A stretch of DNA of 64,000 nt from Octopus vulgaris (lineage: Eukaryota), in assembly GCA_951406725.2 (NCBI GenBank), contig OX597824.1:90334001-90398000 (forward strand). The letters run 5' to 3'. Shown here in pieces: positions 39,356 through 42,965 of this stretch (its first letter is position 1; each line of letters starts with the position of its first letter). The notes under the pieces are model-generated. The model was not told where the DNA came from and made no database searches. It saw nothing but the letters and a program-made list of their open reading frames with translations. The position numbers and the translations under genes were made by a program.

Positions 39356-39443
39356 TGTGGCTGAAGAGTGCTCGACATTTTAAAACTGATGTAATACTTA
39401 CAGTGTTTAATAAAATGAAGTAGCATGAAACAATTGTACTACA
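39356..39443 (+). ncRNA. Type-I hammerhead ribozyme motif (same family as 42873)
   Basis: Stem I UGUGG/CUACA; core CUGAAGA 39361-67; stem II GUGCU/AGCAU; GAA 39427-29; ACAAUUGU; predicted cleavage after A39438. Confidence 0.75.
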
Positions 39444-40189
39444 CGACCATGGATATCTTTGTTGCTTATTTTGATTATATATATATATATATATATATAT
39501 ATATAATACAAATAAGAAAATGGGGGAACAGATTCCTTTCAATCATCAACTTACAGATAATACCAATTCATATAATTTATTAACTAATTAAATAGGAACA
39601 TCCAAATCCAACAGAATAAAACAACATACATCAATAAGTAAGATAATACCATGAAAATAATACATATAAAATGGATCTTACAGGTGTTTCAGCCTGTAGC
39701 TAAAGGTATCTTATTAACCCTTATCTCACTTTGTACTTATATATATATATATATATATATATATATATATATATATATATATATATATATATATATATAT
39801 ATATATATATATATATATATATATATATATATATATATATATATATATATATATATATACTGACATTCCGTCGGTTTTGACGACGGGGGTTCCAGTTGAT
39901 CCGATCAACGGAAAAGCTTGCTCGTGAAATTAACGTGCAAGTGGCTGAGCCCTCCACAGACACGTGTAACCTTAAAGTAGTTCTCAGGGACATTCAGCGT
40001 GACACAGAGTGTGACAAGGCCGGCCCTTTGAAATACAGGTACTACTCATTTTTGCCAGCTGAGTGGATTGGAGCAACGTGAAATAAAGTGTCTTACCAAG
40101 GACACAACGCGTCGCCGGGAATTGAACTCACGACTTTGTGATCGTGAGCCAAATGCCCCTAACCACTAAGCCACGTGCCTTCGGGTGAC

Positions 40190-41710
40190 ATATATGTATG
40201 TATGTGTGTATGTATGTATGTATGTATATATGTATGTATGTATGTTTTATATATGTATGTATGTATATGTGTATGTATGTATGTATATGTGTATGTATGT
40301 ATGTATGTATATGTGTATGTATGTATGTATGTATGTATGTATGTATATGTGTATGTATGTATGTATGTATGTATGTATGTACGTACGTATGTATGTATGT
40401 ATGTATGTATGTATGTATGTATATGTGTATGTATGTATGTATGTATGTATGCATGCATGCATGTATGTATGTATGTATGTATGTATGTATGTATGTATGT
40501 ACGTATGTATGTATGTATGTATGTATGTATGTACGTATGTATGTATGTATATATATGTGTGTGTATGTATGTATGTATGCATGTATGTATGAATATATGT
40601 TTGTATGTGTGTGTGTATGTATGTATGTATTTATGTTCATTTATAATAAAAAAAATTTAAATTAATCTGATATGTTACTCTATACTTTATGAAACAAGAA
40701 TATTATTGATAGTAACTTCGAAGTTTCAACCAGTTAAGTCATTAAGTATGTATTAGACAAAGCTACATACATACATACATACATACATACATACATACAC
40801 ACACATATACATACATACATACATAAGACATACATACATACATACATACATACATACATATACATACATACATAAGACATACATACATACATACATACAT
40901 ACACACATATACATACATACATAAGACATACATACATACATACATACACACACATATACATACATACATACATAAGACATACATACATACATACATACAT
41001 ACATACATACATACATACATACATACATACATACACATATACATACATACATACATAAGACATACATACATACATACATACATACATACATACACATATA
41101 CATACATACATACATAAGACATACATACATACATACATACATACATACATACATACATACATACTTACATACATACATACATACATACATTCATACCCAT
41201 ACATACATACATACATACATACTTACATACATACATACACACATACATACATACATACATACATACATACATACATACATACATACATACATACATACAT
41301 ACATACATACATACATACATACATACATACATACATACATACATACATACATACATACATACATACATACATACATACATATACACATACATACATTCAT
41401 ACCCATACATACATACATACATACATACATACATACATACATACATACATACATACATACATACATACATACATACATACATACATACATACATACATAC
41501 ATACATACATACATACATACATACATACATACATACATACATATACACATACATACATACATACATACATACATACATACATGCATACATACATACATAC
41601 ATACACACATATACACATACATACATTCATACCCATACATACATACATACATGCATGCATATATACATACACACATATACACATACATACATTCATACCC
41701 ATACATACAT
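40190..41710. repeat. (TATG)n and (CATA)n microsatellite blocks in opposite orientation
   Basis: 40190-40630 TATG-rich; 40764-41710 CATA-rich. Confidence 0.95.
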
Positions 41711-42519
41711 ACATAACTACGAACGTACGGACATACATACATTCATACATACTCACACATACATGCATACATATATACATACATACCCATACATACATAT
41801 ATACGTGCGGACATACATACATATACACATATGCACATAAATGAAACATGCGCACGATGCATACAGTACAGGTAGTCAGATAGTGATAAAAAGGACAGAA
41901 TGAGAGGGAGAGAGAAGGAGAGAAAGAGGGAAGAGATAGAGATAGAAATAGATAGATAGATAGATAGATAGATAGATAGATAGATAGATAGATAGAGAGC
42001 CAGAGAGAGGGAAGCAGGCACATACACACTTACACCCCACACACACACAGAAAGATAGTGAAAAATAGTTCAACTTTGTTTTTTCATCTCTCCAGCGTTG
42101 ATAAATTAAAGTCCGAGTCAAGAACCAGTGGCAACGCACAACGAGTCGACGATATTCTACCCTCAAAGAAGACACAAATAAGAAGAGTGTCTCGTTGAAG
42201 TGACACCAGATGGCGGAAAGACAGATAAAATAATGGACCGAGTGACAGGCTGAGGAGATAAATTTTGATAGAGACTGGTAAGATTGCAAGGATTTCATAT
42301 ATATATATATATATATATATATATACACACACACACACACACACACACACACACACACACACACACACACACATATATATATATATATATATATATATAT
42401 ATATATATATATATATATATATATATATATATATATATGTATCTATATATATGTATCTATATATATGTATATATATATATATATATATATATATGTATAT
42501 GTATATATATATATATTTT

Positions 42520-42786
42520 TAAAGGTTATTTGCCAACATAATGTGGCAGTCCGGTTGGGACGAATGTTACTGTAATTTAGCCCCAGGAAAAATCGTCTCT
42601 ATCTGGCTATATGGCACACTATCTGTCAGTTTAGATAAACTCCAAACCCTAAACTCCCTTGTTAGAAAACGTAAGGATGCAGATAGTGTGTCGCATATAC
42701 AGCTGGAGACGATGTTTCCTGGGGCTAAATAGCAGTAACATTCGTCCTAATTAAGACTGCCACATTATGTTGGCAAATAATCTTTA
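42520..42786. repeat. Imperfect fold-back palindrome
   Basis: Arms ~42520-42625 and ~42680-42786; spacer contains GAAAACGTA. Confidence 0.9.
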
Positions 42787-42872
42787 CTTTAGACTACTGT
42801 TACCGAATGTCTCTCGTTGAGAGGTTTAGAAATAATAGAGTTGCTATACATATTTGCATATATATATATATA

Positions 42873-42965
42873 TAATTGGCTGATGAGCACTCAGCATCTT
42901 AAATCTGTTGTAATACTTACAAGATATAATAAAATGATGTAGTGCGAAACAATTGTACCAAATTA
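42873..42965 (+). ncRNA. Type-I hammerhead ribozyme motif, intact core
   Basis: Stem I UUGG/CCAA; core CUGAUGA 42880-86; stem II GCACU(42887-91)/AGUGC(42941-45); GAA; palindromic stem III ACAAUUGU 42949-56; predicted cleavage after A42957 (GUA). Confidence 0.8.

Follow-up and report, generated by a model that had tools for sequence, protein, structure and literature searches.

Octopus vulgaris contig OX597824.1 (assembly GCA_951406725.2) carries, between positions 90,334,001 and 90,398,000 of the forward strand, two similar hammerhead ribozyme motifs on the plus strand, 3519 nucleotides (nt) apart, which raise the question of what brought them there and whether they still cut RNA. The whole stretch of 64,000 nt is termed the window herein, positions are counted from its first letter, and the motifs are called copy 1 and copy 2. 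They are, in our judgment, probably diverged members of an abundant octopus repeat, likely inserted independently as 5'-truncated 3'-end stubs of a Penelope-like element that targets (TA)n or of a non-autonomous derivative of one, with a hammerhead whose palindromic helix III is predicted to let it cleave as a dimer.

Both copies contain the parts of a type I hammerhead, namely C3UGANGA9, G12A13A14, an A15.1-U16.1 pair, and H17 (hammerhead positions are numbered by the standard scheme), with helices I, II, and III surrounding the core and helix I open. Copy 1 has a helix I of 5 base pairs (bp) (UGUGG/CUACA, 39356-60/39439-43), a CUGAAGA/GAAA core with A17 at 39438, a G10.1-U11.1 wobble as closing pair, and a helix II (GUGCU/AGCAU) around 49 nt that is followed by GAA and then by the palindrome ACAAUUGU. 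Copy 2 has a 4-bp helix I (UUGG/CCAA, 42876-79/42958-61), a CUGAUGA/GAAA core with A17 at 42957, a G10.1-C11.1 closing pair, and a helix II (GCACU/AGUGC) likewise around 49 nt and followed by GAA and ACAAUUGU. Neither has an additional nucleotide separating position 9 from position 10.1, and in both helix III comprises just 2 bp as a monomer. A gapless alignment of the copies, running from helix I to 41 nt beyond the cut site, has 95 of 124 positions identical (77%); outside this block, identity is 16/40 upstream and 13/40 downstream. The preliminary description of the locus as two diverged hammerhead copies is borne out by the sequence, the descriptor scan, and this alignment. It placed the second motif at 42873, where the motif itself holds but helix I begins only at 42876, and of the sequences it took to be invariant the CUGANGA/GAA core stood, whereas ACAAUUGU is common to these two copies only, about three quarters of family depth carrying another palindrome.

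The data that weigh most come from the wider family. Part of the segment 42520-43075 was contained in 20 of 24 listed public runs, with no RNA holder of it among them. Family contigs matched 42790-43075 at a threshold of 80% likeness in all four of four runs, which bear three species labels (1772, 1573, 543, and 150 contigs), and variant letters were listed where they reached at least 5% of depth. The run with 150 contigs (X12) is RNA by guess only, and neither its contigs nor its depth profile can be taken as a sign that the family is transcribed or cleaves. Positions 42790-42883 were skipped as repeat, and the zero depth before 42880 is an artefact that gives no evidence of a boundary. Summed depth, which is no copy number, peaked over the motif near 550,000 in run X1 (depth of the longest single contigs there, 24-66), and the family likely comprises thousands of copies.

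Within helix III, the changes 42951 A>G and 42954 T>C accounted in the four runs for 77/76%, 81/76%, 75/68%, and 50/48% of depth, and the depth ratio between the two positions was 1.00 to 1.04. Made jointly, they convert ACAAUUGU into ACGAUCGU, which is also a perfect palindrome and holds the majority of depth. No variant of at least 5% of family depth was listed at the other six palindrome positions or in the core at 42946-42949 and 42956-42958, a check that covers the GAA side of the core, the CUGANGA half being unreadable there. Such a two-sided, palindrome-preserving swap is as expected for dimer cleavage. The letters listed for the inner part of the helix II arm (C or T at 42923, A or G at 42924, and T at 42926) and for helix I (C or T at 42959) all pair with the reference partner; G42923 and A42926 of copy 2 are therefore private, pair-breaking changes. 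The letters of copy 1 at 42923, 42924, 42943, 42945, and 42959 all match family variants, which makes it a member of another subfamily, so that the window holds two subfamilies and the G10.1-U11.1 pair of copy 1 is no private defect. The A common in the family at 42944 predicts a T at 42888 in the copies concerned. Selection on structure rather than on sequence in the source elements, as first proposed from the two copies, is thus supported by the joint change in all four runs and by the pairing of every listed inner-arm and helix I letter, and these family data weigh more than the two copies themselves.

Table 1. Coordinates of the hammerhead copies and of their adjoining features in the window.
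Feature	Position	Strand	Evidence or remark
Copy 1, type I hammerhead motif	39356-39443	+	Sequence and descriptor scan; predicted cut after A39438
Copy 1, helix II and 49-nt bulged extension (39373-39421), closed by UGUAA-UAC-UUACA	39368-39426	+	Fold z score -2.77
Copy 1, helix III palindrome ACAAUUGU	39430-39437	+	2 bp in the monomer and 8 bp when two molecules pair
Copy 1, 21-nt U-rich motif at its end (short 3' end class)	39459-39479	+	Same 21 nt as copy 2; loose family ends at the equivalent site
(TA)n run directly before copy 2 helix I	42858-42874		Likely 5' junction of a truncated insertion
Copy 2, type I hammerhead motif	42876-42961	+	Sequence and descriptor scan; predicted cut after A42957
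Copy 2, helix II and 49-nt extension (42892-42940); private pair-breaking letters at 42923 and 42926	42887-42945	+	Fold z score -2.92
Copy 2, helix III palindrome	42949-42956	+	Family covariation at 42951 and 42954
Copy 2, conserved 21-nt motif	42978-42998	+	21/21 identical to copy 1
3' extension of about 80 nt (long 3' end class)	42999-43080	+	Shared by copy 2 and many family members but lacking in copy 1; hairpins, z score -3.2

Between the two copies alone, all nine core-flanking pairs of helices I and II are kept despite changes at 8 of 18 positions, and three pairs are changed on both sides. When divergence was simulated at the observed rate, 397 of 2,000,000 trials kept all nine pairs with at least three two-sided changes, and eight random changes kept all nine in 0.23% of trials; slid partners paired at 26 to 52%, versus 92% for the true partners. 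A letter-shuffle control on the two rows was nonsignificant (64/500), and the structure tested was itself derived from the same two sequences. The compensatory covariation reported earlier therefore holds as a count of pairs but not against the two-row shuffle, and is suggestive, no proof of selection.

Controls speak against chance as the source of the motif. Its core pattern matched the window twice and had no match in any of 100 shuffles; a strict descriptor matched in 0 of 60 shuffles, and a loose one gave 0.1 matches per shuffle. Among 40 distinct core-pattern matches from outside (6 viral and 58 metagenome loci, queried with the window palindrome ACAAUUGU, later found to be the minority form), none had helices I and II of at least 4 bp each. 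The pattern with the alternative palindrome ACGAUCGU had no match in viral contigs, nor did the family pattern in prokaryote genomes. Two candidates were set aside as chance matches: a third loose-descriptor match on the minus strand of the window (35865-35983), whose helix II has just 2 bp, and a 465-nt tandem coding-like repeat at an outside locus (L012, 4001-7801, Ga0209187_1000003; also L046 and L058), which matches the core without helices I and II.

The region within helix II had been taken for a loop of about 50 nt. The length is right (49 nt), but helix II with its contents folds better than shuffled sequences (Table 1), and the 49 nt are predicted to form a bulged continuation of helix II rather than an open loop. 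Both arms follow one register of 5 bp, a 2-nt bulge, 5 bp, a 6-nt bulge, 5 bp, a 2-nt bulge, 8 bp, and a UAC loop; of 23 possible pairs, two fail in copy 1 and two in copy 2, and the minimum-energy fold of copy 1 has a shifted register in mid-arm. Such an arm is indeed atypical, as had been noted, and lies outside the published search descriptor, which limits helix II to 7 bp and a loop of 3 to 10 nt (PMC4209133; published sources are drawn on here as far as their accessible portions extend). The long bulged helix II appears to have been kept by selection on the RNA of the element, and at a guess it most likely helps the RNA to fold or binds the protein of the element.

Folding predictions point to cleavage between two molecules. 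As a monomer, the 2-bp helix III has a pair probability of 0.01 to 0.06, and the active monomer lies 1.3 to 1.9 kcal/mol above the minimum. The unconstrained co-fold of homodimers trimmed to helix I was the active form, a swapped double hammerhead in which helix III has 8 bp, at -39.0 and -37.2 kcal/mol versus -30.4 and -28.4 kcal/mol for two monomers, that is, about 9 kcal/mol lower. Palindrome duplexes of like with like reached -6.4 or -10.0 kcal/mol, and mixed ones -1.9 kcal/mol. The family hammerhead is therefore predicted to cut RNA as a dimer only. At the locus itself, copy 2 is predicted to misfold through its upstream TA junction, the helix I probability of the active dimer falling to 0.17 to 0 with 5 to 15 nt of native flank; together with its two private pair-breaking changes, this makes its activity in place doubtful. 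The suggestion that copy 2 might still self-cleave is thus right about an intact core and only weakly supported beyond it, given the 2-bp monomer helix III and a dimer minimum for trimmed RNA only. Both window copies are probably inert now, relics without host function.

Beyond the cut site, copy 1 runs after its 21-nt motif into (TA)15 at 39476-39505, and copy 2 continues through the extension into (TA)n at 43077-43161. Family members end in the same two ways: (TA)n follows 42998 in at least 15, 24, and 5 records of three runs (DNA or unclassified) and lies after about 43080 in others, and there are family contigs that bridge the 21-nt motif and the extension. Two 3' end classes, about 40 and 120 nt beyond the cut, follow from this distribution. 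Loose ends near 43069 continue for a few letters and in two runs (X2 and X12) reach TA-rich sequence; the evidence on loose ends draws on 24 rows out of 196 and on 32 pieces out of 4063, and a joint between opposite strands that occurs in a single contig is left out of account. No family variant of at least 5% was listed for 42974-42995. Insertion into (TA)n is seen in both window copies and in loose ends of three runs.

This combination resembles the hammerheads of Penelope-like elements, which have a short helix I, a long helix II, and a palindromic helix III, lie as dispersed single copies, and show weak dimer activity (PMC4209133). The copies share with the metazoan minimal motifs and their variants (Cervera and De la Peña 2014) the type I form, a helix I of 4 to 5 bp, an enlarged helix II, a palindromic helix III that requires a dimer, many dispersed copies, and variable subfamilies; they differ in a helix II that spans 59 nt (about 23 possible pairs and three bulges), in the 8-nt palindrome, in the lack of an extra nucleotide after A9, and in that no linked open reading frame (ORF) was found in the window. 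Hydra-clade hammerheads lie near the 3' end of elements inserted into (TA)n, some with G-U closing pairs and some lacking the additional nucleotide after A9 (PMC8557442, File S2); both the G-C closing pair of copy 2 and the G-U pair of copy 1, without the extra nucleotide, thus occur among them. Members of this clade, including Hydra-1_Obim of Octopus bimaculoides, are alike also in a 3- to 4-bp near-palindromic helix III and in U-rich sequence after the motif, and an optional tail of 30 to 40 nt has been reported (PMC8557442). The table of Craig et al. 2021 has 34 rows, 26 of them Hydra-clade rows with a loop II of 3 to 10 nt (PMC8557442). A precedent for an enlarged arm is given there by the Selaginella elements PLE-X1_sMoe and PLE-X1_sTam, whose loop II of 35 and 29 nt is flagged as deviating (2 of the 34 rows, File S2), but these elements are from a plant, lack an endonuclease, target ribosomal DNA, and stay below 49 nt. 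In the Poseidon element PAc of Anolis (Frangieh et al. 2024, PMC11167929), reverse transcription has two start sites downstream of the hammerhead, so that the tail is optional, and cleavage is protein assisted; PAc is like the octopus family in its AT-rich targets and, to judge by the two 3' end classes of the latter, probably in its optional tail, and unlike it in a tail of 30 to 40 nt (about 80 nt here), a normal loop, and cleavage only with the protein of the element. The O. vulgaris genome holds 31 recently active Penelope-like families, and the accessible account of them does not mention ribozymes (PMC13282606). An assignment to Naiad_Obim or Hydra-1_Obim was rejected because the 3' end of the former and the motif of the latter differ. 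Motif words were not found in the accessible supplement of PMC8557442, where a word split by a line break could escape notice and the 3' end of Naiad_Ovul is not covered. What sets the family apart from known dimeric Penelope-like hammerheads is a helix II of 59 nt and the exchange of one palindrome for another. Our literature search found no description of the octopus motif; subscription papers, Dfam, and Repbase lay outside it, so that absence from print is not established.

Membership of the hammerhead carrier among Penelope-like elements stays at likely because no link to an ORF was found. On this reading, two like hammerheads within a multimeric RNA transcribed from the source element would pair their 8-nt palindromes and exchange helix I strands, and the exchanged strands would complete two active cores, each cutting after A17. 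Reverse transcription, primed on nicked (TA)n, would begin at one of two sites about 40 or 120 nt 3' of the cut, and frequent early stops would leave 5'-truncated stubs like copies 1 and 2.

Several observations weigh against this account. No remnant of a reverse transcriptase or GIY-YIG endonuclease was found by Pfam in 130 translated stretches of the window (5 with matches), comprising 124 of 330 filtered ORFs and 6 shorter stretches beside the copies, and a 48-amino-acid ORF upstream of copy 1, tried as a candidate, had only matches to an FG-GAP repeat protein and an ankyrin repeat protein, which we reject as spurious. The published Octopus Hydra hammerhead (Hydra-1_Obim) is a different sequence with an 8-nt loop (PMC8557442), the two 3' ends lie about 80 nt apart versus a published tail of 30 to 40 nt, and the palindrome, at 8 nt, exceeds that of most minimal motifs in length. 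For other copies, the readable span includes neither their upstream sequence nor the 5' strands of their helices I and II, and the variant letters are unphased. CpG decay of ACGAUCGU would also yield both changes to ACAAUUGU; of the mirror-image decay products at 42950 and 42955, none is listed at 5%. Finally, the active dimer is no longer the predicted fold once native flanks are added, with a trans helix I probability of at most 0.17 in all six copy 2 constructs and at most 0.08 in five of six copy 1 constructs.

Among other explanations, the one that survives best, although we consider it quite unlikely, is that the copies are solo monomers of a non-long-terminal-repeat retrozyme, that is, of tandem 150- to 400-nt repeats whose monomers are released, circularised, and re-inserted; the definition of retrozymes and the dimer model are confirmed by published accounts (PMC6765202, PMC7229834, PMC3088659). 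Animal retrozymes are likewise non-coding and high in copy number, their type I hammerheads with a weak palindromic helix III occur in molluscs (PMC7229834), and no ORF lies near the copies. Unlike them, the window has no tandem hammerhead unit around either copy (PMC7229834; 10.64898/2026.07.22.740005). The sequence 3' of copy 2 is also unlike that 5' of copy 1, neither of the two contig joints listed connects a 3' end to the motif, and the ends of the copies lie at fixed sites with (TA)n behind them. Retrozymes, for their part, may have arisen from Penelope-like repeats (10.64898/2026.07.22.740005), so that this explanation overlaps with the Penelope-like one; a word search of the accessible text of that source found no mention of octopus.

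It is decidedly improbable that the carrier is another short retroposon, comparable to the hammerhead short interspersed nuclear elements (SINEs) of schistosomes and mobilised by a non-Penelope enzyme. Very high abundance without coding sequence would suit it, as would the share of SINEs in the O. vulgaris genome (11.6%, mostly unclassified; PMC13282606), yet a palindromic helix III, a (TA)n target, and two 3' ends form a Penelope-like combination. A 14-nt word of the extension (43049-43062) recurs at six other places in the window (17253, 23006, 23373, 34906, 35106, and 57930), but at chance level (expectation [E] value of 0.046 each). Some of these places lie inside 184-nt tandem repeats, which we take to resemble octopus SINEs.

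We think it very improbable that the two motifs are the terminal repeats of a single decayed 3.5-kb Penelope-like element, paired within one transcript. Their shared strand, their identical palindromes, and their spacing, near the 3 kb reported for full elements (PMC4209133), fit such a pair, but the interval consists of microsatellites and short repeats with no reverse transcriptase or endonuclease found in it, the differences between the copies are subfamily letters, and their similarity ends at helix I. A heterodimer of copies 1 and 2 would moreover have only 3 bp of helix I per side, its active form lying 2.5 kcal/mol above the favoured inactive one. More doubtful still is a host-retained ribozyme in copy 2 that processes a local transcript: its core is intact, but 15 intact core nucleotides are expected anyway in a lightly diverged copy, and its private changes and predicted misfolding speak against such a function. 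That the resemblance to a hammerhead arose by chance in an AT-rich repeat is scarcely credible given the shuffle and outside controls, the invariant core, and the palindrome-preserving change across the family, even though Rfam covariance models gave no match at gathering score and no hammerhead among 8 and 6 weak matches at E values up to 10, and although the folding z scores of the whole motifs are only -0.7 and -0.9.

The window has other features of note. Between the copies, facing (TATG)n and (TACA)n arrays at 40193-41831 have arms of about 400 nt with 78% complementarity, and a transcript of them would fold into an extended duplex. A foldback element (42520-42786), self-inverted with 74.5% over about 267 nt, lies immediately upstream of copy 2, and a 25-nt word of it is found again in inverted orientation at 53825-53849 and 54078-54102. 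A frame at 39322-39357 reads MCIVSLTEKFYM and by eye resembles the CxxCLTEK of Hydra-clade endonucleases; its distance from the hammerhead does not fit, Pfam found nothing, and the likeness is probably due to chance. A hAT-like miniature element occupies 38850-39049, with near-perfect terminal inverted repeats that start with CAGTG and the 8-bp target duplication CTCTACAC on both sides. On the minus strand, 50090-51340 is a Tc1/mariner remnant with matches to DDE_3 and to a Sleeping Beauty helix-turn-helix, and 43230-44260 looks, by eye only, like a decayed Tc1/mariner-type transposon. An uninterrupted frame at 14979-15749 encodes an SH2 domain and a SOCS box; it is SOCS2-like and clusters at 90% identity with SOCS2 of Octopus bimaculoides.

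Penelope-like hammerheads cleave poorly in vitro, and one requires the protein of its element. The octopus family offers natural, high-copy evidence for selection on the helix III palindrome itself, and its subfamily variants are ready pairs for testing dimer cleavage and its specificity. A bolder reading, which we hold to be unlikely, is that its members are short, non-autonomous elements derived from Penelope, forming a large family that has been overlooked in octopus and that has a subfamily self-recognition code, in which palindrome and helix I would change together and each hammerhead would dimerise and cleave with its own kind only, while the conserved long helix II would dock the partner reverse transcriptase. 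Because Rfam and the published descriptor miss the 59-nt helix II, many ribozymes may so far have gone uncounted in octopus and other genomes, and if self-recognition proved true, loop-length limits would be hiding a whole class of long-armed genomic hammerheads.

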